In this document: positions 1,308-42,328 of the stretch, one piece after another
How the letters are laid out: every line of letters begins with the position of its first letter
Position numbering within the stretch: position 1 is the stretch's first letter
Origin: a virus
UHGV virus genome: UHGV-0075042
Reading direction: 5' to 3' (one strand)
Length of the DNA stretch: 42,328 nt
Notes under the pieces: generated by a model
What the model was told of the DNA's origin: nothing
The model's database searches: none
Seen by the model: the letters and a program-made list of their open reading frames with translations, nothing else
Position numbers and translations under genes: made by a program

Positions 1308-1670
1308 ATGTTAAATATATTTGCAAGGTACACCTCGATTGGTGTGCTGAACACACTTATACACTGGGTGGTTTTTGGTGTATGTATCTATGCCGCGCAT
1401 ACCAATCAGGCTCTGGCAAACTTCGCAGGTTTCGTTGTGGCTGTGAGTTTTAGCTTCTTCGCGAATGCAAAATTCACATTCAAAGCATCAACTACAACGA
1501 TGCGCTACATGTTATATGTCGGGTTCATGGGAACACTGAGTGCTACTGTTGGATGGGCTGCTGATAGATGCGCACTTCCTCCGATGATAACTCTTGTCAC
1601 CTTCTCCGCCATCAGCCTGGTGTGCGGTTTCGTCTATTCAAAGTTCATTGTCTTTAGGGATGCGAAATGA
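1308..1670 (+). CDS. gtrA: GtrA, bactoprenol-glucose flippase (O-antigen conversion)
   Basis: 120-aa small 4-TM protein, start [24 protein letters not shown] typical of GtrA; first gene of a gtrABC operon. Confidence 0.9.
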
Positions 1671-2581
1671 AAATTTCTTTAGTCGTTCCGGTCTTTAACG
1701 AAGAGGCCACGATACCTATTTTTTATAAAACCGTGCGCGAATTTGAAGGGCTTCAGCAGCATGAAGTCGAGATAGTCTTCATAAACGATGGCAGCAAAGA
1801 CGCTACAGAATCAATTATCAACGAGCTTGCTGTTGCCGACCCGCTTGTGGTTTCGCTGTCGTTCACACGTAACTTCGGCAAAGAACCTGCCCTGTTCGCA
1901 GGTCTGGACCATGCTACCGGGGAGGCAATTATCCCGATTGACGTTGATCTGCAAGACCCTATCGAAGTTATTCCTCACTTGATAGAGAAATGGCAGGCCG
2001 GTGCAGATATGGTTCTGGCTAAACGCTCTGACCGCTCCACTGACAGCAGGCTGAAGCGTAAATCTGCTGAGTGGTTCTATAAACTTCATAACAAAATCAG
2101 CAACCCTCAGATAGAAGAGAATGTTGGCGACTTCCGGCTCATGTCTCGCGAAGTAGTAGAAAACATTAAGCTCATGCCAGAACGAAACCTGTTTATGAAG
2201 GGTGTGCTGAGCTGGGTTGGTGGTCGAACCGATGTCGTAGAATATGCGCGAGCAGAACGCGTTGCAGGAAGCACAAAGTTCAATGGATGGAAGCTATGGA
2301 ACTTGGCGCTGGAAGGGATCACTAGCTTTTCTACTTTCCCTTTGCGCATGTGGACTTATATAGGCCTGTTTGTGGCAACCTTATCATTCCTTTATGGAGC
2401 ATGGATGATTGCTGATAAATTGATGTTTGGAAATAGTGTTCCAGGTTACCCTTCTATCATTGTATCAATATTGTTTCTTGGTGGAGTTCAGTTAATAGGC
2501 ATAGGAGTTCTTGGAGAGTATATAGGAAGAATTTATGTTGAAGTTAAGCAGCGACCAAGATACATTCTAAAGGATAAGTAA
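1667..2581 (+). CDS. gtrB: GtrB, bactoprenol glucosyltransferase (GT2 family)
   Basis: 304 aa; GT2 motifs ([20 protein letters not shown]) and C-terminal TM helices; start overlaps gtrA stop. Confidence 0.9.
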
Positions 2582-2582
2582 A

Positions 2583-4049
2583 ATGACTTTAAATATAAAA
2601 AAAACAGCCATATACATCATTGGATTTATATTCCTGACTTTCTTCTACGCCTCGATTTCAAAACAGATTTTGCCAAGTTCGGATGCTGTTTCTGGACTTC
2701 TTGAGGGTAAGGACATTGCGGACGGAAATTGGACGCTTAGTGGATGGTATCTCTCTACAGTATCATTCTATTTTACAGACATAATATGGTACGGGCTTGC
2801 TTCAAAGGTATTCTGGTACGGACAGTACCAAGCATACTGCATACCGGCAATTATGTATTCAATGGTTACATTGATGACATTTTATCTTTCAAAAGAAAGG
2901 CTTTCATCGTTATGGGCCATTTCATTTTGCGTTGCGCTGCCTTCTGGGTTTGCAGTATTAAACGTATTAATACCTGTGATACATGTCGGCACATATGTAT
3001 CCATGTTGTTTTGCTTCATAATGTTAGACAATTTTTCCAAAACAAGATCGTTAATTTCTCTATCTCTTTATATTTTAGTGTTAGCTCTAGCTTGTTTCAG
3101 TGATGACATCATAAAGCTACTCATTATTGCACCAGTAGCAATATCATCAGTGATTTTTATAGTAAAAACCAAAAGCCAAAAAAATCTGATCATACTAGTT
3201 GCAACTATATTTGCATATGTTGCATCAAAAATTATGACCATGTACGCAAGAGCTCATAACTGGTACATTTTGCCAGGCGTTCCAGATCCAACATTTGTTG
3301 CATTTGATGATATCCTGAATAATTTATACTTATTCGTAAAAGGATTCCTCCTATACAGTGGAGCTTTCTTCTTTGGCAAGCCACCTTCTGATATTACAGC
3401 GCTTATTTCTGTTTTTTGTTTTGTTGTAATGATTTTACTTCTTATATTAGTTGCAATGTCAGTAAAGGAAATATTCTTTACCTCCATGATCAATATGGCT
3501 ATATGTATAGCTTGTATTATAATGATACCAGCATACCTTGCAAGTAACCGTCCAATAGATGAATGGACTATAAGATATATCGTTCCATTTTTTATACTAG
3601 CACCTGTTGTTATTGGCAGATCTAACAACTCCAGAGGGTGGAAATTCATCGCATTAGGGGTTGTTACAACATTTATTCTCTTTTGTTCTATTTATATGCA
3701 TGAAAAAAAAGACAATTCTAATGATATTATAAATCAGATAAAACACACTGTAAGGCAGAATAACCTCACAAACGGGTATGCATCTTTCTGGTTTGCTTCA
3801 TCAGCAAGTATAGATGGAGACATATCAATTGCTCCGATTGATGTAAACCGAGGTTTGAATATACTTGCATGCAATAAATGGTTGTCAAAAAACTATTGGT
3901 ATGAGCGCGGAGGAAATTTCATAATTACAGATGACGAGGTTATGAGAAATATAACAATTAAAGAGATTGGTAATCCATCAAAGGTTATTGACGTCGGAGA
4001 TAAGAAGATTTTTGTTTACGATAAAAACATTACATTCAACTGCAATTAA
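2583..4049 (+). CDS. GtrC-type serotype-specific O-antigen glucosyltransferase (polytopic membrane protein)
   Basis: 488-aa highly hydrophobic multi-TM protein directly after gtrB; markedly AT-rich, as is typical of the type-specific third gene of gtr operons. Confidence 0.7.
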   Translation: MTLNIKKTAIYIIGFIFLTFFYASISKQILPSSDAVSGLLEGKDIADGNWTLSGWYLSTVSFYFTDIIWYGLASKVFWYGQYQAYCIPAIMYSMVTLMTFYLSKERLSSLWAISFCVALPSGFAVLNVLIPVIHVGTYVSMLFCFIMLDNFSKTRSLISLSLYILVLALACFSDDIIKLLIIAPVAISSVIFIVKTKSQKNLIILVATIFAYVASKIMTMYARAHNWYILPGVPDPTFVAFDDILNNLYLFVKGFLLYSGAFFFGKPPSDITALISVFCFVVMILLLILVAMSVKEIFFTSMINMAICIACIIMIPAYLASNRPIDEWTIRYIVPFFILAPVVIGRSNNSRGWKFIALGVVTTFILFCSIYMHEKKDNSNDIINQIKHTVRQNNLTNGYASFWFASSASIDGDISIAPIDVNRGLNILACNKWLSKNYWYERGGNFIITDDEVMRNITIKEIGNPSKVIDVGDKKIFVYDKNITFNCN

Positions 4050-4057
4050 TTAAATAA

Positions 4058-4077
4058 GCGGGTGCTAAGCACCCGCA
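4058..4077. terminator. Bidirectional stem-loop between convergent gtrC and tailspike
   Basis: GCGGGTGC-TAAG-GCACCCGC perfect hairpin in the 31-bp gap between two convergent genes. Confidence 0.6.
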
Positions 4078-4080
4078 TTA

Positions 4081-5844
4081 TCATACACTTGTACCATCCG
4101 CCCTCTTCCATTCAGATGATACTGTGTTATACCATATTGGAAGACCTAGCGTTGTATCATAATACATCTGCCCACTGACTGGTGCTGTAGGGCGCTGCGC
4201 AGTAGATCCACGGTTTTGATAAGTCGTCTGAGTATCATTAACACCTAGACAAGCTATAATACGATTTTTGCGCTCTTCCGATGTATTAAGGTAAATCTTG
4301 GTCGTCATATCGCTATCGAAAGAAACGCCATTGATGGTTATGCCGTTACAGTTATCGGCGGGGTCTGTGATCCCAAGTGGTTGCACGTAGTATCCACCTC
4401 TGATATAAGACGTACCCATAGAGCCGCCAATAACAGATATTTCTTTACAGTTTACCAACGATAGCCCACCAGTCTTATTTCCGTTGAATATATTATTAGA
4501 CAAAGAACATTGTTCAGCATTTTCCAATACCATGCCGAACTCACCACAGTAAGTGATAGTGTTTCCCGTAAATGTTAGATTTCTTGCCCCTTTAATATTA
4601 ATTCCACGACTATTGTTTATCCTCCCTGCACTAATAATGTTACCGCTGATGGTAGCGTAAGCCAGACTCTCCATATCAAAAGCAGTACCGTTGATGGCAT
4701 CAAAAACGCTATTTGAAATTATAACCGGATAACCCGCGAATTGGTCTGTTCCACCCATCTCACCAAGTGTTGTGCGTGTTCTTACCGCAAAATCTCCAGC
4801 AAACATTGAGCATTCACTAATAAATAAATCGGCGGTATCCCATACGTCAATCGGAGAGTTAGAACTGAAACACATAAGAAACTTAGGTGATTCGCTGATG
4901 AACTCCACAGTATTTAAATCCGCACGCCCCAAGAATGGACTACCCCAACGTTCGCACCGGAAGAAGTTAACGTAATGGTAGTTGTTCATAGTAGTTTGTG
5001 CGTTATAGAAAAACACCCGATCAAACTCTAAGTTCTGGACATGACGACAAACAATCCAGTTAATCAGCACGTCGGATGATATGACTACATCTCGGAATAT
5101 GCCACCCTGTTTCCACTGACTAGCAGCCGGGCCAGACCCTGTAAGGGTAAACATAGTGAAGGTTGAATCAGAACCTAGATATTTAATCTCTGGATTTTTT
5201 GCGTTACCAATAATTTCATATTTTGCTGGAAGCTCAATGTCTCTGGTCTTCATTCCATATATGCCAGAACCTTTCAAGTGAATTTTTCTTGCGCCTGAAG
5301 CGAATGCCTTCTGAAAGGCTATGCTATTATCTGTTGTTCCAGAATCATCTTTGCCACCAAAGTCTTCCAAAAATACAAAATCATCCAGCTTTTCTTGTAC
5401 ATTCCTGAAGACAGCACCATCAACAACAGATGGTAATCCATACTTATACTTTACTGTTTCAGGGAATGCCCCGCTTGCAAACTCTCCCTCTAGCTCCTGC
5501 CGGAACTGGTCCGGGTCATACTTGAGAATGTTTGGATAGTAGAACTGCTGTGTGCCATATGCGTCATACACAGCCATTGAATGTCCCTGTACGGTAACGA
5601 ACTTTGCAATCTGTCCGTTATATACCGGATAACCAGCAGCGTTAATGATGATTGGTTGCGAAACAGGAACGTGAGAGCCGTCTTCGTTCTCTACATAAAC
5701 CTGAATCTGGTTTTCAGGATTTACCGGGTCAGTGTCAATTTTACCGATATAAATTTTGCCATTGGCAACGGCTTTAAAAGAACGCGCCATAGTGAAGAGT
5801 TGCGAAGGCATGCTTACCACAACATTGGCTGTAATGTCTGTCAT
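4081..5844 (-). CDS. Tailspike protein (P22-like N-terminal head-binding domain plus distinct beta-helix receptor-binding domain)
   Basis: 587 aa; N-terminal ~110 aa ([13 protein letters not shown]...[21 protein letters not shown]...[13 protein letters not shown]) matches the conserved head-binding domain of P22/Sf6-family tailspikes as recalled; remainder is Gly/Asn/Ser-rich, beta-helix-like. Confidence 0.85.
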
Positions 5845-19479: not shown

Positions 19480-20003
19480 TTTCCGAATAGAGTGCTCATC
19501 GGTGATGTTTCTATCTGGATTGCGCCGCCGTCTTTGCCGGTTAGCTCGTGAGAAGATTGTTCTTTAAATGCCTGAACAGAAACATGCTTACCAAGAAGTT
19601 CGAGGTTTTTAACCTTATCAGGCCATTTGATTTTCTTCAGAAGTGCGGCACTATCTGCGGATACCATCTCCACAACATCCATTCCTGATAGCGTTGTGCG
19701 CCATACCTTAGGCCAGTCTTTAATGGGCTTTAACTCACCGTTTTGCAGAAGAATGTCGAGCACATCCATCTGGTCGATTTCAAGAAGGCGATTAAGTACA
19801 TATTCTGCATTAATACCAACAAGATCATTGCGTTGCGCTTTCAGTTCGGCGATTCTTAACTTGATGTCAGGTTTTGACAGGTTTTCGGATGCGGTACGGT
19901 TAGCTGTCTTTGCGCTGTACCCCGCACGAATAGCCGCTTGCGTGGCGTTTAAATCGATGAGGTACTCGTGACAGAACATTTCTTGCTTGTCAGTAAGTGC
20001 CAT
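19476..20003 (-). CDS. Terminase small subunit
   Basis: 175 aa, MALTDKQEMFCHEYLIDLNATQAAIRAGYS is a typical small-terminase N-terminus; stop overlaps the large-subunit start. Confidence 0.8.
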   Translation of the reverse strand: MALTDKQEMFCHEYLIDLNATQAAIRAGYSAKTANRTASENLSKPDIKLRIAELKAQRNDLVGINAEYVLNRLLEIDQMDVLDILLQNGELKPIKDWPKVWRTTLSGMDVVEMVSADSAALLKKIKWPDKVKNLELLGKHVSVQAFKEQSSHELTGKDGGAIQIETSPMSTLFGK

Positions 20004-20024
20004 GTTTTATCTCTGGAGATTTTC

Positions 20025-20270
20025 GTGAGAAAATTAATCGTATTTGTATCTTTTTGTTCGGCTTTAGGCTTTGGCTATCAAGCCATAACCAGTCAAACAT
20101 TATCCACAGCGCTAGCAGCATTAGCGAGTTTGGTCGTTTTTCTAACAGCCTTAGCAAATCTAAAAAGCAACAAAGCTAAAGAGCAAGGTGTTAGCCAAAC
20201 AATCGGCGATAACTCTAGCGGTATACAAATTGGTGGCAACATAACTATTAATGAAAGGGACAAAGAATGA
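20025..20270 (+). CDS. Small membrane protein, first gene of opposite-strand moron cassette
   Basis: GTG start at 20025 with GGAG 8 nt upstream; two hydrophobic helices; C-terminus QTIGDNSSGIQIGGNITINERDKE; stop overlaps next start (ATGA). Confidence 0.5.
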   Translation: MRKLIVFVSFCSALGFGYQAITSQTLSTALAALASLVVFLTALANLKSNKAKEQGVSQTIGDNSSGIQIGGNITINERDKE

Positions 20271-21172
20271 GCTTATTCGAGAAATCCGGTCAAAGTGTGG
20301 GTGATAACTCCTCAGCTATACAAGTTACCGGTGATGCCTACTTTGGCAACACCACTACTGAGGTCATGGCTATTTGCCAGTTAATGGTCAAAAGTGAAAT
20401 GGCTTCGCTTCGTGAAGATGCATTCGCTTTAGTCGACTCACGGGCTCAAGAATTTGGTCACCAAATTGCAGAAAAACTATCTAAAGATGTTGATGAAAAA
20501 CTAAGAGCAAAACTCGCTGATCCCGATATTCAGTACACCCTCAATCAAGCAGTCGTTCAGGTCGCAAGAAAGGGGTTTGATGCAAAATCAGAACTTCTTA
20601 AGGAGTTAATAGTTACTAAAATTGAAAACGATCAAGAAGACCAAAGCATTTTGATCGATCAAGCGTTAGATACAACATCCAGACTGACCACTAATGATAT
20701 TAAGTTTTTGGCATTTGTATATTTTTTACGTTCAATCAATAAGATGGTAGGAAGTATAAATATCACAGAACTTGCAGAGAAAAAAAGTACTCATTTTTCA
20801 CTACCTAACATTTCCTTGGAAGAAAATTACATGATCCATAGGTCAATGTATGCTGTTTATGAAACAGATTATATAAAATTTCTTGGAGAACATTTCACCC
20901 TCAAACGCCTAAATCAGCAGCTATTAGAAATTAAAGGCGTATTTTTCTCAGATAAAATATATAATATCAATTACTTAGAGTTATTATCAAAAAGAACGGG
21001 TTATGACACTCTTACATCTGATGCATCATTTTATGAAGCATTCCCAGCTACAAAATTAGTTCTCGACTCTTTTGGTATTTCAACCCTTACAGAACTTGAC
21101 TCACTAGTCATCAATCCAGTAGGTATGATTATTGCAGAAAATTATCTCAAAGCTCATGGATATATCAGTTAA
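20267..21172 (+). CDS. Hypothetical 301-aa protein, second gene of moron cassette (no family assigned)
   Basis: Long ORF in AT-rich DNA, opposite to the flanking late genes; N-terminus SVGDNSSAIQVTGDAYFGN echoes the upstream protein's C-terminus; no TM segments evident. Confidence 0.65.
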   Translation: MSLFEKSGQSVGDNSSAIQVTGDAYFGNTTTEVMAICQLMVKSEMASLREDAFALVDSRAQEFGHQIAEKLSKDVDEKLRAKLADPDIQYTLNQAVVQVARKGFDAKSELLKELIVTKIENDQEDQSILIDQALDTTSRLTTNDIKFLAFVYFLRSINKMVGSINITELAEKKSTHFSLPNISLEENYMIHRSMYAVYETDYIKFLGEHFTLKRLNQQLLEIKGVFFSDKIYNINYLELLSKRTGYDTLTSDASFYEAFPATKLVLDSFGISTLTELDSLVINPVGMIIAENYLKAHGYIS

Positions 21173-39643: not shown

Positions 39644-39862
39644 ATGTACTTGACTCTTCAGGAGTGGAACGCTCGCCAGCGACGCCCAAGAAGCCTTGAA
39701 ACAGTTCGTCGATGGGTGCGCGAATGCAGGATATTCCCTCCTCCGGTTAAGGATGGAAGAGAGTATCTGTTCCACGAATCAGCGGTAAAGGTTGACTTAA
39801 ATCGACCAGTAACAGGTAGCCTTTTGAAGAGGATCAGAAATGGGAAGAAGGCGAAGTCATGA
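39644..39862 (+). CDS. xis: Excisionase Xis (lambda-type)
   Basis: 72 aa, MYLTLQEWNARQRRPRSLETVRRWVRECRIFPPPVKDGREYLFHESAVKVDL matches lambda Xis. Confidence 0.95.
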   Translation: MYLTLQEWNARQRRPRSLETVRRWVRECRIFPPPVKDGREYLFHESAVKVDLNRPVTGSLLKRIRNGKKAKS

Positions 39863-40910
39863 GCGCCGGGATTTACCCCCTAACCTTTATTTAAGAAACA
39901 ATGGATATTACTGCTACAGGGACCCAAGGACGGGTAAAGAGTTCGGATTAGGCAGAGACAGGAGGATAGCAATCACTGAAGCTATACAGGCCAACATTGA
40001 GTTATTTTCAGGACACAAACACAAGCCTCTGACAGCGAGAATCAACAGTGATAATTCTGTTACGTTACATTCATGGCTTGATCGCTACGAAAAAATCCTC
40101 GCCAGCAGAGGAATCAAGCAGAAGACACTCATAAATTACATGAGCAAAATTAAAGCAATAAGGAGGGGTCTGCCTGATGCTCCACTTGAAGACATCACCA
40201 CAAAAGAAATTGCGGCAATGCTCAATGGATACATAGACGAGGGCAAGGCTGCGTCAGCCAAGTTAATCAGATCAACACTGAGCGATGCATTCCGAGAGGC
40301 AATAGCTGAAGGCCATATAACAACAAACCCTGTCGCTGCCACTCGCGCAGCAAAATCAGAGGTAAGGAGATCAAGACTTACGGCTGACGAATACCTGAAA
40401 ATTTATCAAGCAGCAGAATCATCACCATGTTGGCTCAGACTTGCAATGGAACTGGCTGTTGTTACCGGGCAGCGAGTTGGTGATTTATGCGAAATGAAGT
40501 GGTCTGATATCGTAGATGGATATCTTTATGTCGAGCAAAGCAAAACAGGCGTAAAAATTGCCATCCCAACAACATTGCATGTTGATGCTCTCGGGATATC
40601 AATGAAGGAAACACTTGATAAATGCAAAGAGATTCTTGGCGGAGAAACCATAATTGCATCTACTCGTCGTGAACCGCTTTCATCCGGCACAGTATCAAGG
40701 TATTTTATGCGCGCACGAAAAGCATCAGGTCTTTCCTTCGAAGGGGATCCGCCTACCTTTCACGAGTTGCGCAGTTTGTCTGCAAGACTCTATGAGAAGC
40801 AGATAAGCGATAAGTTTGCTCAACATCTTCTCGGGCATAAGTCGGACACCATGGCATCACAGTATCGTGATGACAGAGGCAGGGAGTGGGACAAAATTGA
40901 AATCAAATAA
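39840..40910 (+). CDS. int: Integrase Int (lambda-type tyrosine recombinase)
   Basis: 356 aa, MGRRRSHERRDLPPNLY...RDDRGREWDKIEIK matches lambda Int almost throughout as recalled; overlaps xis 3' end as in lambda. Confidence 0.97.
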   Translation: MGRRRSHERRDLPPNLYLRNNGYYCYRDPRTGKEFGLGRDRRIAITEAIQANIELFSGHKHKPLTARINSDNSVTLHSWLDRYEKILASRGIKQKTLINYMSKIKAIRRGLPDAPLEDITTKEIAAMLNGYIDEGKAASAKLIRSTLSDAFREAIAEGHITTNPVAATRAAKSEVRRSRLTADEYLKIYQAAESSPCWLRLAMELAVVTGQRVGDLCEMKWSDIVDGYLYVEQSKTGVKIAIPTTLHVDALGISMKETLDKCKEILGGETIIASTRREPLSSGTVSRYFMRARKASGLSFEGDPPTFHELRSLSARLYEKQISDKFAQHLLGHKSDTMASQYRDDRGREWDKIEIK

Positions 40911-41000
40911 TGATTTTATTTTGACTGATAGTGACCTGTTCGTTGCAACAAATTGATAAGCAATGCTTTTTTATAATGCCAACTTAGTATAAAAAAGCAG
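40911..41000. other. attL junction (P' arm, 15-bp core, bacterial B arm)
   Basis: Core TTAGTATAAAAAAGC at 40984..40998 (reverse complement of lambda core GCTTTTTTATACTAA), preceded by lambda P'-arm sequence and followed by host sequence leading into ybhC. Confidence 0.8.
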
Positions 41001-41044
41001 GCTTCAACGGATTCATTTTTCTATTTCATAGCCCGGAGCAACCT

Positions 41045-42328
41045 GTGAACACATTTTCAGTTTCCCGTCTGGCGCTGGCATTGGCTTTTGGCGTGACGCT
41101 GACCGCCTGTAGCTCAACACCGCCCGATCAACGTCCTTCTGATCAAACCGCGCCTGGTACCTCTTCTCGCCCGATTCTGTCGGCAAAAGAAGCGCAGAAT
41201 TTCGATGCTCAACACTATTTTGCATCCCTGACACCAGGTGCGGCAGCGTGGAATCCTTCCCCGATTACCCTGCCTGCGCAACCTGACTTTGTTGTCGGCC
41301 CGGCGGGTACTCAAGGTGTAACGCATACCACGATTCAGGCGGCGGTAGATGCGGCAATTATCAAGCGCACCAACAAGCGCCAGTATATTGCCGTGATGCC
41401 TGGTGAGTATCAGGGAACGGTGTATGTCCCTGCCGCTCCGGGTGGAATTACTCTGTACGGTACAGGTGAAAAACCGATTGATGTGAAGATTGGGCTTTCC
41501 CTTGATGGGGGCATGAGCCCTGCCGACTGGCGTCACGACGTCAACCCGCGCGGCAAATATATGCCAGGTAAACCAGCGTGGTATATGTACGATAGCTGCC
41601 AGAGCAAACGCAGCGACAGTATCGGTGTTCTCTGCTCTGCGGTCTTCTGGTCACAAAACAATGGCCTGCAACTGCAAAATCTGACCATCGAAAACACGCT
41701 GGGCGATAGCGTAGATGCGGGTAACCATCCGGCGGTGGCACTGCGTACTGATGGTGACAAAGTGCAGATCAATAACGTCAACATTCTCGGTCGTCAGAAT
41801 ACCTTCTTTGTCACCAACAGTGGTGTGCAAAACCGTCTGGAAACCAACCGTCAGCCGCGTACTCTGGTGACCAACAGTTACATTGAAGGGGATGTGGATA
41901 TCGTTTCTGGTCGCGGCGCAGTGGTGTTCGATAACACCGAATTCCGCGTGGTGAACTCACGTACTCAGCAAGAAGCGTATGTGTTTGCACCGGCTACGCT
42001 GTCTAACATCTATTACGGTTTCCTCGCCGTAAACAGCCGTTTCAATGCTTCCGGTGATGGCGTGGCGCAACTGGGTCGCTCGCTGGATGTTGATGCCAAT
42101 ACCAACGGTCAGGTGGTGATCCGTGATAGCGCCATCAACGAAGGTTTTAACACAGCCAAACCCTGGGCTGATGCGGTGATCTCTAATCGTCCGTTTGCGG
42201 GTAACACCGGCAGCGTTGATGATAACGACGAAATACAACGCAATCTGAATGACACTAACTACAACCGCATGTGGGAATACAATAACCGCGGCGTGGGTAG
42301 CAAAGTGGTTGCAGAGGCGAAGAAGTAA
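41045..42328 (+). CDS. ybhC: Host YbhC outer-membrane lipoprotein (pectinesterase-family putative thioesterase)
   Basis: 427 aa, GTG start, lipoprotein signal (LALAFGVTLTAC); matches E. coli YbhC, the gene flanking lambda attB. Confidence 0.9.
   Translation: MNTFSVSRLALALAFGVTLTACSSTPPDQRPSDQTAPGTSSRPILSAKEAQNFDAQHYFASLTPGAAAWNPSPITLPAQPDFVVGPAGTQGVTHTTIQAAVDAAIIKRTNKRQYIAVMPGEYQGTVYVPAAPGGITLYGTGEKPIDVKIGLSLDGGMSPADWRHDVNPRGKYMPGKPAWYMYDSCQSKRSDSIGVLCSAVFWSQNNGLQLQNLTIENTLGDSVDAGNHPAVALRTDGDKVQINNVNILGRQNTFFVTNSGVQNRLETNRQPRTLVTNSYIEGDVDIVSGRGAVVFDNTEFRVVNSRTQQEAYVFAPATLSNIYYGFLAVNSRFNASGDGVAQLGRSLDVDANTNGQVVIRDSAINEGFNTAKPWADAVISNRPFAGNTGSVDDNDEIQRNLNDTNYNRMWEYNNRGVGSKVVAEAKK

Follow-up and report, generated by a model that had tools for sequence, protein, structure and literature searches.

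The 42,328-nt virus genome analysed here (the window) carries three consecutive gtr-type genes that face a tailspike gene. The locus raises the question of which host glycan is modified by this operon and which enzyme is encoded by its third gene. Our analysis suggests that a P22-like prophage of E. coli strains of the O17/O44/O73/O77/O106 group (hereafter, the O77 group) carries gtrABC as, most likely, an O-antigen glucosylation module of the Gtr type. The evidence comprises the content and integrity of the genes, the fold of the third product and its homology to GtrI, the position of the third gene after gtrA and gtrB, its co-occurrence with the O77-group gene cluster and the homology of the tailspike. 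Systems of this type are well known; GtrC is an enzyme of that type not previously named.

Organization of the gtr operon

The operon and its upstream region feature the following elements.

1159-1307, + strand: region upstream of gtrA, homologous to the att-lambda prophage copy from 1178 on, with one GATC (1250)
1308-1670, + strand: gtrA, small membrane protein of the GtrA family (120 aa), putative undecaprenyl-phosphate (Und-P)-glucose flippase; PF04138, phrog_2224
1667-2581, + strand: gtrB, GT2 bactoprenol (Und-P) glucosyltransferase (304 aa); PF00535, phrog_34335/841
2583-4049, + strand: gtrC, predicted GT-C fold membrane glycosyltransferase (488 aa) of an unnamed GtrI-like family, found in O77-group genomes only

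The gtrA product matches PF04138 (E 2e-13) and the PHROG family "GtrA-like" (phrog_2224, E 3e-69), and the gtrB product matches the GT2 domain (PF00535, E 3e-30) and the PHROG GtrB family (E 1e-178). GtrA is 87% and 77% identical to the SfV and P22 proteins, respectively, and GtrB is 87% identical to both. With 77-87% identity to Shigella and P22 proteins, the two genes are conserved, as had been noted in a sequence-only reading of this DNA.

The three genes are co-oriented; 4 nt are shared by gtrA and gtrB, and gtrC starts 1 nt past the gtrB stop codon. A check for inactivating mutations revealed neither frameshifts nor internal stops in the window copies of gtrA, gtrB and gtrC, and all three ORFs are intact. 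At the base composition of gtrC, the probability that a frame stays open by chance for 488 codons is approximately 3e-16. As in GtrABC loci, the gene directly 3' of gtrB is on the same strand, is poorly conserved and encodes a polytopic protein, and the same third-gene slot after gtrA-gtrB is kept in homologous loci. Gene content and slot thus agree with the earlier view of this region as a probable O-antigen modification operon of the gtrABC type, its third gene being type-specific.

In the region preceding gtrA (1159-1307), a search for promoters revealed no sigma-70 consensus; expression of the operon is therefore an assumption. P22 carries four GATC sites arranged in two pairs (214/227 and 278/291 of the upstream region), which are associated with Dam/OxyR phase variation in P22 and most Salmonella gtr families, whereas the window carries one, at 1250. 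Only one GATC is similarly found upstream of gtrA in the prophage copy of strain ST3. On the GATC count, Dam/OxyR phase variation was rejected for the window operon.

GtrC is a predicted GT-C glycosyltransferase related to GtrI

In the structural model, 11-13 hydrophobic helices of GtrC precede an alpha/beta domain at the C-terminus (approximately residues 382-483), which is predicted to be periplasmic. This is the architecture of GT-C enzymes, and all fold matches of the model are to GT-C proteins. Residues S33, D34, N49, W55, H134, P184, R331, G398 and G463 are invariant in 30 family sequences, down to 20% identity, and D174 is also conserved. D34 lies within an SSDA motif directly after TM1, provides the acidic residue in the first loop typical of GT-C enzymes and is also present in GtrI. 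In a positive-inside topology, the conserved residues are predicted to fall at periplasmic loop ends.

Database searches with GtrC were largely negative. GtrC has no match in Pfam (even at E 10), NCBIfam or PADLOC, and a set of 30 diverse family members likewise gave no Pfam match. Matches in PHROGs were limited to three families of unknown function built from C-terminal fragments. No GtrC homologue was found by tblastn in 50,697 phage records, the family profile did not match PDB sequences, and Foldseek hits among BFVD viral models were not better than E 2e-3, none of them being annotated. GtrC belongs neither to Glucos_trans_II (PF14264), which includes P22 GtrC, nor to DUF6056 (PF19528), which includes the epsilon34 and HF4s GtrC proteins. 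GtrII and P22 GtrC match the former model at <=1e-30, whereas GtrC does not match it even at E 10, and hhalign probabilities were <=4% with GtrII, P22 GtrC and the third protein of O17-type loci. GtrC did not match DUF6056 either, and hhalign probabilities were 16% with epsilon34 GtrC and 0.2% with HF4s GtrC.

In contrast, a GtrC family profile built from 30 diverse members aligned with GtrI of SfI over 441 columns (hhalign probability 99.3%, E 1.8e-20). The motifs common to the family and GtrI surround D34, W55, H134, D174, P184, R331, GYxSFW and G463. Pairwise BLASTP aligned the C-terminal domains only (27% identity, E 7e-5). The sequence-only reading had proposed a comparison with characterised GtrC proteins; none of these is near-identical, and the best match is the profile-level one to GtrI (18% identity). 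GtrI is the type I antigen glucosyltransferase, which adds Glc alpha1-4 onto GlcNAc (PMC3636060). Since identity is only 18%, neither acceptor nor linkage is transferable from GtrI to GtrC.

By sequence, GtrC qualifies as a member of a GtrI-like family that has no database name. The family includes 3,456 clusters at 50% identity, across which the invariant polar residues are kept, and is a large GT-C family that falls outside Pfam and NCBIfam coverage. Homologues 29-89% identical to GtrC are encoded directly after gtrA-gtrB in E. coli, Salmonella, Serratia and Enterobacter, and the Pseudomonas homologue has a gtrB homologue within 4 kb. The 89% identical orthologue is found in S. Carrau (group H, O:6,14), where gtrABC is intact and lies in a phage-free islet; this serovar presumably shares the O77 O-antigen backbone. 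The adjacent gtrB and gtrA genes suggest that GtrC uses a lipid-phosphate-linked sugar donor. The polyprenyl-phosphate-sugar-dependent GT-C enzymes ArnT, PglB, PMT and ALG are only 7-12% identical to GtrC and differ in both donors and acceptors.

A protein without any Pfam or NCBIfam match might have a function other than glycosyl transfer, and GtrC could be an acyltransferase-type enzyme (as in Salmonella family II/BTP1), a Wzy-like polymerase or a superinfection-exclusion protein. Acetyltransferases are reported to occupy the GtrC slot in some loci (PMC4413052). However, an acyltransferase-3 domain or fold is absent from GtrC (no Pfam match; fold matches to GT-C only), and we consider such functions highly improbable.

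Two groups of homologues deserve mention. Salmonella proteins P0021-P0023 (serogroup C1, 30-33% identical to GtrC) may correspond to GtrC family V of Davies et al., which shifts LPS, as judged by operon length (2727-2730 nt) and serogroup. The E. coli homologue P0017 (40% identical) was considered as the WbbG protein of strain 042; this was ruled out, as none of the complete genomes, that of 042 included, encodes P0017.

Distribution of gtrC in E. coli

The O77-group wzx/wzy cluster is present in 94 of 5,426 complete E. coli genomes, and all 25 gtrC carriers are among them (hypergeometric probability 3e-46, a value that overstates independence, since many carriers are near-identical, clonal isolates). 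Carriers include ST69 strains and one cryptic-clade-I strain, and the exact GtrC protein is encoded on 481 public contigs. The gtrC module is found in two unrelated prophage backbones, one P22-like and one of myovirus type; the latter has different tail fibres and holds the module in about half of the carriers. At every locus examined, gtrA, gtrB and gtrC have intact ORFs. The gene is absent from the O17 reference strain K12a and from the O44 strain 042.

Some carriers feature additional gtrC genes. In eight of the 25, a GtrC paralogue (32% identical) is also encoded at argW; in strain PS_131_S11, the gene for this paralogue spans 4731771-4733228. One further carrier encodes an O17-type GtrC. 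The remaining 16, which include the M7424/CNREC-004-43 lineage and ST3, have neither, and in 13 of these a single gtr locus was detected by megablast. Both additional genes are confined to the 94 O77-group genomes, 14 of which carry the argW paralogue and 35 the O17-type gene.

These combinations bear on the nature of the acceptor. GtrC may be an active GT-C enzyme that extends a glucose added by a prior GtrC, or that modifies the LPS core, ECA or another periplasmic glycan. Two-step modification would be possible in the carriers that have a second gtrC gene, O73 and O106 bear two glucoses each, and GtrIc provides a precedent, as it extends an existing glucose in S. flexneri 1c. In the 16 carriers that have neither of the other two gtrC genes, however, an enzyme restricted to the second step would be useless. 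The core and ECA are common to all E. coli, yet gtrC is tied to one O-antigen cluster only, and this exclusive linkage argues against them as targets. We therefore regard an alternative acceptor as unlikely and favour direct modification of the O77-type chain.

In the literature, the diversity of the O77 group has been ascribed to prophage gtr genes at the ybhB-ybhC site. Genes for side branches have been assigned for O44 only, and the O73 enzymes are stated to be unidentified in one paper. The O-antigen structures of the O77 group, as well as the gtr locus of O44, were reportedly described by Wang et al. 2007. In the 2025 French O77g:H18 HUS outbreak strain, the gtrC locus is the only gtr locus detected; this strain does not agglutinate with O17, O44, O73, O77 or O106 antisera.

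Tailspike and intergenic hairpin

Two features lie downstream of gtrC.

4058-4076, both strands: hairpin (8-bp stem, 3-nt loop, GC-rich) between the convergent gtrC and tailspike genes
4081-5844, - strand: tailspike (587 aa), consisting of a P22 head-binding domain (aa 1-124) and a beta-helix body

The hairpin, GCGGGUGC-UAA-GCACCCGC, lies in the 31-nt gap between the stop codons of gtrC (4047-4049) and of the tailspike gene (4081-4083). The predicted fold has an energy of -18.1 kcal/mol (z -5.1) on the + strand and of -18.7 kcal/mol (z -3.0) on the - strand; shuffled sequences never fold as well. The convergence of the two genes across a shared hairpin, already pointed out from the sequence, is thus confirmed, with a stable fold at 4058-4076 on both strands. 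The hairpin looks like an intrinsic terminator, is probably bidirectional and has its U-rich tail on the tailspike strand. Annotated terminators are present at the equivalent position between gtrC and tailspike genes in P22 and epsilon34.

The tailspike has the organization of P22-like spikes, in which an N-terminal head-binding domain (PF09008, E 2e-67) is followed by a beta-helix body of the receptor-binding/cleaving type (Beta_helix also matched). Residues 114-586 align with TSP3 of phage CBA120 (PDB 6NW9/5W6F; E 7.6e-223), the body being 66% identical. TSP3 is the O77-specific spike of CBA120, and swapping TSP3 abolishes infection of O77 (PMC9965104). The suggestion of a phage that modifies the very receptor it uses thereby gains independent support, as a TSP3-like, probably O77-directed tailspike accompanies a gene found only in O77-group genomes. 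The window provides a clean case in which a tailspike and a putative modifying enzyme for one glycan are encoded back to back.

For P22-like carriers, the host range of the tailspike is also a real confounder. The operon might be silent or decaying cargo, and the association with the O77 cluster might mirror the host range of tailspike-restricted phages rather than enzyme specificity. The lack of a recognised promoter is in keeping with this possibility, as is the finding of Davies et al. that some intact Salmonella gtr families gave no LPS shift. Yet gtrABC is intact at all examined loci, including those of the myovirus-type prophages and the phage-free islet of S. Carrau, and the exact protein occurs on 481 public contigs. 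Moreover, the invariance of polar residues throughout the family clusters indicates purifying selection, and the negative reaction of the outbreak strain with O77 serum fits an expressed modification. Silent cargo is thus quite improbable, and we retain an active O-antigen glucosylation module as the preferred reading.

Base composition and exchange of the gtrC cassette

The sequence-only reading had described the third gene (2583-4049, 488 aa) as polytopic and markedly AT-rich. Both coordinates and composition were verified. The GC content of gtrC is 34.4% (GC3 31.9%), compared to 46.97% for the whole window, and gtrC is the GC minimum of the 42-kb window (1467-nt sliding windows; mean 0.469, sd 0.040). 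Recent acquisition, which had been deduced from this composition, is not borne out. All gtrC genes compared (those of GtrI, II, IV, V, P22, epsilon34, HF4s and the O17-type locus) have a GC content of 31-38%, and the wzx and wzy genes of the O77 group have a GC content of 32%. Low GC is thus a trait of the gene class, and AT-richness was discarded as a sign of recency. Homology to sister loci stops at 2588-2606 and restarts at approximately 4053-4089; judging by these breakpoints, and not by GC content, exchange of the gtrC cassette is real.

Three features at the ends of the window bear on its origin.

1-1158, + strand: IntS/P4-type tyrosine integrase (Pfam Phage_integrase and Arm-DNA-bind_3), part of an argW (CPS-53-like) gtr locus
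39840-40910, + strand: lambda-type integrase (Pfam Arm-DNA-bind_1 and Phage_integrase), the P22-like prophage's own, at the other end of the window
41045-42328, adjoining the lambda-type integrase: host gene ybhC (Pfam Pectinesterase)

Strain PS_131_S11 carries an argW-intS-gtrA-gtrB locus to which positions 1-2102 of the window are identical, and the SNP pattern places the crossover between two parental gtr loci inside gtrB, at 1964-2102. By sequence identity, the integrase at 1-1158 belongs to the argW locus and not to the P22-like prophage that supplied gtrC. The adjacency of int and gtrA, which resembles the P22 map, is on the same grounds a recombinant junction of two gtr loci, a point missed in the earlier reading; it may reflect a genuine argW/att-lambda inversion or a chimeric assembly. 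The lambda-type integrase next to ybhC places the P22-like element at the att-lambda site. In strain ST3, the prophage is located between ybhB and ybhC, in the order ybhB, lambda att core, gtr module and P22-like structural genes. The attachment site is thus seen in ST3, the left junction of the window itself being recombinant with the argW locus.

Comparison with known gtr loci

Similarly to GtrC, GtrI of S. flexneri phage SfI is encoded in a prophage slot after gtrA-gtrB, is of comparable length (506 and 488 residues, respectively) and shows full-length profile homology. In contrast, the host O-antigen is Rha3-GlcNAc in Shigella and Man3-GlcNAc here, and SfI is a different carrier phage that inserts at thrW/proA rather than at att-lambda. 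P22 (O:1 conversion), epsilon34 and HF4s share with the window the order (int)-gtrA-gtrB-gtrC, the hairpin and a convergent tailspike gene with a P22 head-binding domain. Unlike P22, the prophage analysed here uses a lambda-type Int at ybhB-ybhC.

The closest loci by host and site are the gtrA-gtrB-wbbG locus of the O44 strain 042 and the O17-type locus of K12a, which occur in the same O-antigen group and, by attL, at the same ybhB-ybhC site. In the O17-type locus, GtrA and the first 210 residues of GtrB are identical to those of the window, but the third gene encodes a 495-residue Glucos_trans_II-like protein (35 genomes).

Proposed mechanism and implications

With regard to sugar, acceptor residue, linkage, catalytic residues, expression and effect on phage adsorption, we infer the following scheme. 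GtrB would synthesize undecaprenyl-phosphate-glucose at the cytoplasmic face of the inner membrane, and GtrA would move it to the periplasmic face. GtrC would then transfer glucose to one residue of the ->6)Man(a1-2)Man(a1-2)Man(b1-3)GlcNAc(a1-> backbone common to O17, O44, O73, O77 and O106. D34 (in the first periplasmic loop), H134, D174 and R331 may form a catalytic centre at the periplasmic membrane surface. The tailspike would recognise, and probably cleave, the O77-type chain; since this chain is its target, a lysogen that glucosylates it would acquire a different serotype and probably adsorb its own and related phages less well. Because the O17 reference strain and the O44 strain 042 both lack the gene, the specificity of GtrC would differ from theirs.

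Strains in which this is the only gtr locus are predicted to carry a single glucose, in a form that matches neither O17 nor O44. A serogroup of this kind is not recognised, which is either a point of interest or a sign that gtrC is silent.

We tentatively propose, as a possibility short of an expectation, that gtrC makes a sixth O77-group form missed by serology, in which a single glucose occupies a position unused by O17 and O44, possibly an O73/O106 branch. If so, the failure of the outbreak strain to react with all five antisera would be explained, because the gtrC locus is its only detected gtr locus. The two glucoses of serogroups O73 and O106, whose genetic basis has been missing, would then be explained by gtrC in combination with the argW paralogue, and a large GT-C family without a database model would have GtrC as its first representative in E. 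coli.

O17, O44, O73, O77 and O106 cannot be distinguished by genome because one O-antigen gene cluster is common to all. As marker genes, gtrC (25 genomes), the argW paralogue (14) and the O17-type gene (35) could enable in-silico typing of the O77 group. They also offer a testable account of non-agglutinating O77-group strains, including an ST69 STEC lineage that caused HUS. O77-group ExPEC are among the commoner serotypes outside candidate ExPEC vaccines, and the glucosylated form carried by a strain is thus relevant to antigen choice.

Organization of the gtrABC operon

Judged from their sequences, gtrA, gtrB and the downstream ORF appear to form a genuine gtrABC seroconversion module. The third gene (gtrC) is predicted to encode a GtrI-like GT-C glycosyltransferase, so far unnamed, that is specific for the O-antigen of the E. 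coli O77 group (O17/O44/O73/O77/O106, with one common O-antigen gene cluster), and it lies back to back with the gene for a predicted O77-type tailspike. Modules of this kind are already known and will not surprise the specialist. This one is useful because it supplies candidate genes for the serogroups of this complex, and it offers a testable account of why some O77-group strains, an HUS outbreak lineage among them, cannot be typed.

1308-1670, + strand: gtrA; strong Pfam and PHROG family matches
1667-2581, + strand: gtrB, overlapping gtrA by 4 nt; strong Pfam and PHROG family matches
2583-4049, + strand: gtrC, an ORF of 488 codons starting 1 nt past the gtrB stop
4058-4076: GC-rich hairpin with an 8-bp stem between the convergent gtrC and tailspike genes; -18 kcal/mol, z -5.1 and -3.0
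4081-5844, convergent with gtrC: tailspike gene, 587 aa, P22 head-binding domain at residues 1-124

The three gtr ORFs are tightly packed in one orientation. GtrA shares 87% identity with its SfV counterpart and 77% with that of P22, GtrB is 87% identical to both counterparts, and gtrAB DNA is about 81% identical to that of SfI, SfII, SfIV and SfV and 82-88% identical to that of coliphage HF4s. No DNA match to the third gene was found among phage records. The probability that an open frame of this length arises by chance, given its base composition, is about 3e-16, and its GC content (34.4%) is the lowest of any 1467-nt stretch in the window (mean 46.9%, sd 4.0). Its stop codon is 31 nt from that of the tailspike gene. 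The intervening hairpin has a U-rich tail on the tailspike strand, and annotated terminators occupy the equivalent position in P22 and epsilon34. The ORF layout, family matches, GC minimum and hairpin thus confirm in every particular what the sequence-only reading had observed, namely conserved gtrA and gtrB genes and a strongly AT-rich third gene that converges on the tailspike gene through a hairpin.

Base composition and cassette exchange

The AT-richness had also been taken as a sign of recent acquisition, a step that is not supported. All gtrC genes compared (GtrI, II, IV, V, P22, epsilon34, HF4s and O17-type) have a GC content of 31-38%, and that of the O77-group wzx and wzy genes is 32%. 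Low GC is the norm for this gene class and is uninformative on recency.

Exchange of the gtrC cassette is evident from alignments with O17-type loci and with loci carrying an E. coli homologue 40% identical to the window protein (P0017). Nucleotide identity is about 95% until 2588-2606, is absent over gtrC, and returns weakly at about 4053-4164. The last ~95 residues of GtrB differ according to the cassette. In the O77-group loci of E. coli, GtrB is 99-100% identical over its first 210 residues, and the C-terminal transmembrane part (2296-2581, the 3' third of gtrB) is 87-90% identical and tracks the gtrC type. Because this part varies with gtrC type, the recombination boundary often lies within gtrB, not at its end.

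In myovirus-type att-lambda prophages with gtr modules, an 80-nt relic of the 3' end of a P22-type tailspike gene is found just past gtrC. The relic suggests either that the cassette came from a P22-like phage or that the stretch serves as a recombination linker. The tailspike 3'-end stretch is located as follows.

4081-4164: window
L002:8877-8960: myovirus-type prophage locus
L018:6924-6999: E. coli CFSAN061770

Family and predicted fold of the gtrC product

The gtrC product has no match in Pfam (even at E 10), NCBIfam or PADLOC, hits only fragment families of unknown function among PHROGs, and has no tblastn match in 50,697 phage records. RefSeq annotates it as a hypothetical protein, and 481 public contigs carry the exact protein. 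A word-indexed search retrieved 23 clusters of enterobacterial relatives. An exhaustive profile search retrieved 3,456 clusters at 50% identity, 582 with E 1e-30 or better; most are full length (480-650 aa), and none of 30 diverse members matched a Pfam model.

Pairwise BLASTP against GtrI, GtrII, GtrIV, GtrV and the P22, epsilon34 and HF4s GtrC proteins gave one weak match, to the C-terminal domain of GtrI (27% identity, E 7e-5). PF14264 includes GtrII and P22 GtrC, DUF6056 includes the epsilon34 and HF4s GtrC proteins, and GtrIV, GtrI and GtrV have sub-threshold Pfam matches or none. The family profile aligned with GtrI over 441 columns (probability 99.3%, E 1.8e-20), with conserved motifs common to both; against all other characterised GtrCs, the probability was 16% or less. 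Profile comparison thus places the window protein in a GtrI-like family, as a distant member with 18% identity to GtrI. GtrI, encoded by SfI, adds Glc alpha1-4 to GlcNAc (PMC3636060). Comparison with the characterised GtrCs, as the sequence-only reading had proposed, thus revealed no near-identical protein, GtrI being the closest, and the view of gtrC as a divergent type-specific gene therefore stands.

A confident AlphaFold model built with 20 homologues (pLDDT 85.5, pTM 0.86) consists of a helical membrane domain (5-372) followed by a C-terminal alpha/beta domain (382-483). Alignment of 30 sequences, with identities as low as 20%, shows S33, D34, N49, W55, H134, P184, R331, G398 and G463 to be invariant, and D174 is almost invariant. 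By the positive-inside rule, the favoured topology would have helix 59-77 in the first periplasmic loop. With this arrangement, the conserved residues would all lie at periplasmic loop ends, the C-terminal domain would be periplasmic, and D34, directly behind TM1, would occupy the catalytic-acid position of GT-C enzymes.

Association with the O77 group

Homology to CBA120 ORF212/TSP3 spans the whole of the tailspike body (66% identity; PDB 6NW9/5W6F, E 7.6e-223), and TSP3 was shown by chimera swapping to confer infection of E. coli O77 (PMC9965104). In a set of 5,426 complete E. coli genomes, gtrABC is present in 25 with an identity of at least 98%, and the gtrC part is at least 99.3% identical. 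As a probe for the O77 group, we used the wzx-wzy pair of the carrier M7424, annotated in RefSeq as O17/O44/O73/O77/O106 family; it is present in 94 of the 5,426 genomes. A chimeric gtrC and wzy query matched exactly these 94 records, at 119 places; therefore, all 25 gtrC carriers are O77-group strains, and the gene occurs in no other genome (hypergeometric 3e-46, a value inflated by the clonality of the carriers). Carriers include ST69 STEC strains (PMC13188871) and a cryptic-clade-I strain (PMC10100065), and the gene resides at ybhB-ybhC in two unrelated prophage backbones, a P22-like podovirus and a baseplate-bearing myovirus-type element.

According to reviews, members of the O77 group differ by glucose branches added by prophage gtr genes; a gene is assigned for O44 only (gtrA-gtrB-wbbG at ybhB-ybhC), and the O73 enzymes are called unidentified (PMC7685785, PMC10304059). 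The O44 strain 042 and the O17 reference strain K12a carry wzy and lack the window gtrC. K12a and 34 other genomes encode, at the site used in gtrC carriers, a PF14264-type GtrC along with an identical GtrA and a nearly identical GtrB; this gene is probably the O17 determinant. A further GtrC, a paralogue of the window protein, is found at argW in strain PS_131_S11.

L018:5383-6870 (CFSAN061770; also in K12a), adjacent to ybhB: O17-type third gene, 495 aa, Glucos_trans_II-type, 35 genomes
L019:6084-7541 (PS_131_S11 argW locus), after intS-gtrA-gtrB: paralogous GtrC, 485 aa, 32% identical

The argW paralogue falls in the GtrI-like family with the window protein (hhalign E 3e-61). It occupies argW in 14 of the 5,426 genomes, all O77-group, and eight of these also carry the window gtrC; the window gtrC and the O17-type gene coexist in one genome. 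Strains with two gtrC genes are the obvious ones to consider as possible members of O73 and O106, the serogroups with two glucoses.

By megablast, 13 of the 25 carriers possess the window-type gtr locus alone, including the Australian M7424, M00057 and M11957 and the French CNREC-004-43. For the French outbreak strain, antisera against each of the five O77-group antigens were reported to give a negative result (PMC13094856), and C165-02, an older member of its lineage, is named as O73 in the variant stx2d-O73-C165-02. These observations fit a glucosylated form outside the five recognised antigens, perhaps with one branch in common with O73. Capsule masking or lack of O-antigen expression is also a possible cause of the negative serology.

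Conserved context in other bacteria

Relatives of gtrC follow gtrA-gtrB in several genera.

E. coli, 40% identical: directly after gtrA-gtrB, att-lambda site, myovirus-type prophage
S. Oranienburg, 33% identical: directly after gtrA-gtrB, followed by a beta-helix tailspike-like gene
S. Carrau (GCA_018524125.1), 89% identical: directly after gtrA-gtrB, in a phage-free islet flanked by a fimbrial operon and proBA
Serratia, 41% identical: directly after gtrA-gtrB
Enterobacter, 32% identical: directly after gtrA-gtrB

Pseudomonas relatives (29-31% identical) have a gtrB homologue within 4 kb. The S. Carrau orthologue and a protein of Citrobacter freundii with 88% identity show that the cassette has moved between genera. 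Homologues from Salmonella serogroup C1 (S. Oranienburg and P0021-P0023, 30-33% identical) are encoded in a gtrABC operon of 2730 nt, next to a beta-helix tailspike-like gene. In length and serogroup, this operon matches GtrC family V of Davies et al., of which the homologues may be members. Family V shifts LPS experimentally (Davies et al.).

Window structure and the junction within gtrB

The window does not correspond to a simple phage genome. On the right (39840-42328), it runs from a lambda-type integrase gene into chromosomal DNA (the host gene ybhC), where it ends.

39840-40910: lambda-type integrase, 356 aa, with the lambda arm-binding domain

The two integrases of the window are unrelated (23% identity over 114 aa only). 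In strain ST3, the same prophage starts with ybhB, the lambda att core and gtrA, whereas in the window an IntS-type integrase gene precedes gtrA. Positions 1-2102 (intS, gtrA and 5' gtrB) match the argW-intS-gtrA-gtrB locus of PS_131_S11 without a difference, and 1964-4200 are likewise identical to the att-lambda P22-like prophage of ST3, which places a crossover inside gtrB. In PS_131_S11, the argW and att-lambda loci are mutually inverted; on the K-12 map, their positions are roughly symmetrical about the replication terminus. The arrangement may have come either from a large inversion across two oppositely oriented gtrAB copies or from a mis-join in the assembly. The operon should be unaffected, because both parents have the same GtrA and the hybrid GtrB remains intact.

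A second AT-rich patch (19968-21172, + strand, 33-40% GC) contains two ORFs (100 aa, membrane-like, and 301 aa) opposed to the adjacent terminase genes. Neither matches Pfam or PADLOC, and the patch is probably a moron.

A single GATC lies upstream of gtrA in the window, in contrast to P22 with its two GATC pairs that form the Dam/OxyR switch. The window region also gave no match to a sigma-70 consensus promoter. Repeated TGCAAAG/CTTTGCA motifs are found between int and gtrA (1178-1230). They are conserved with the P22 region from attP to the gtr promoter, and the stretch overlaps an annotated terminator of HK620. The motifs are candidates for an int terminator, arm sites or gtr regulation.
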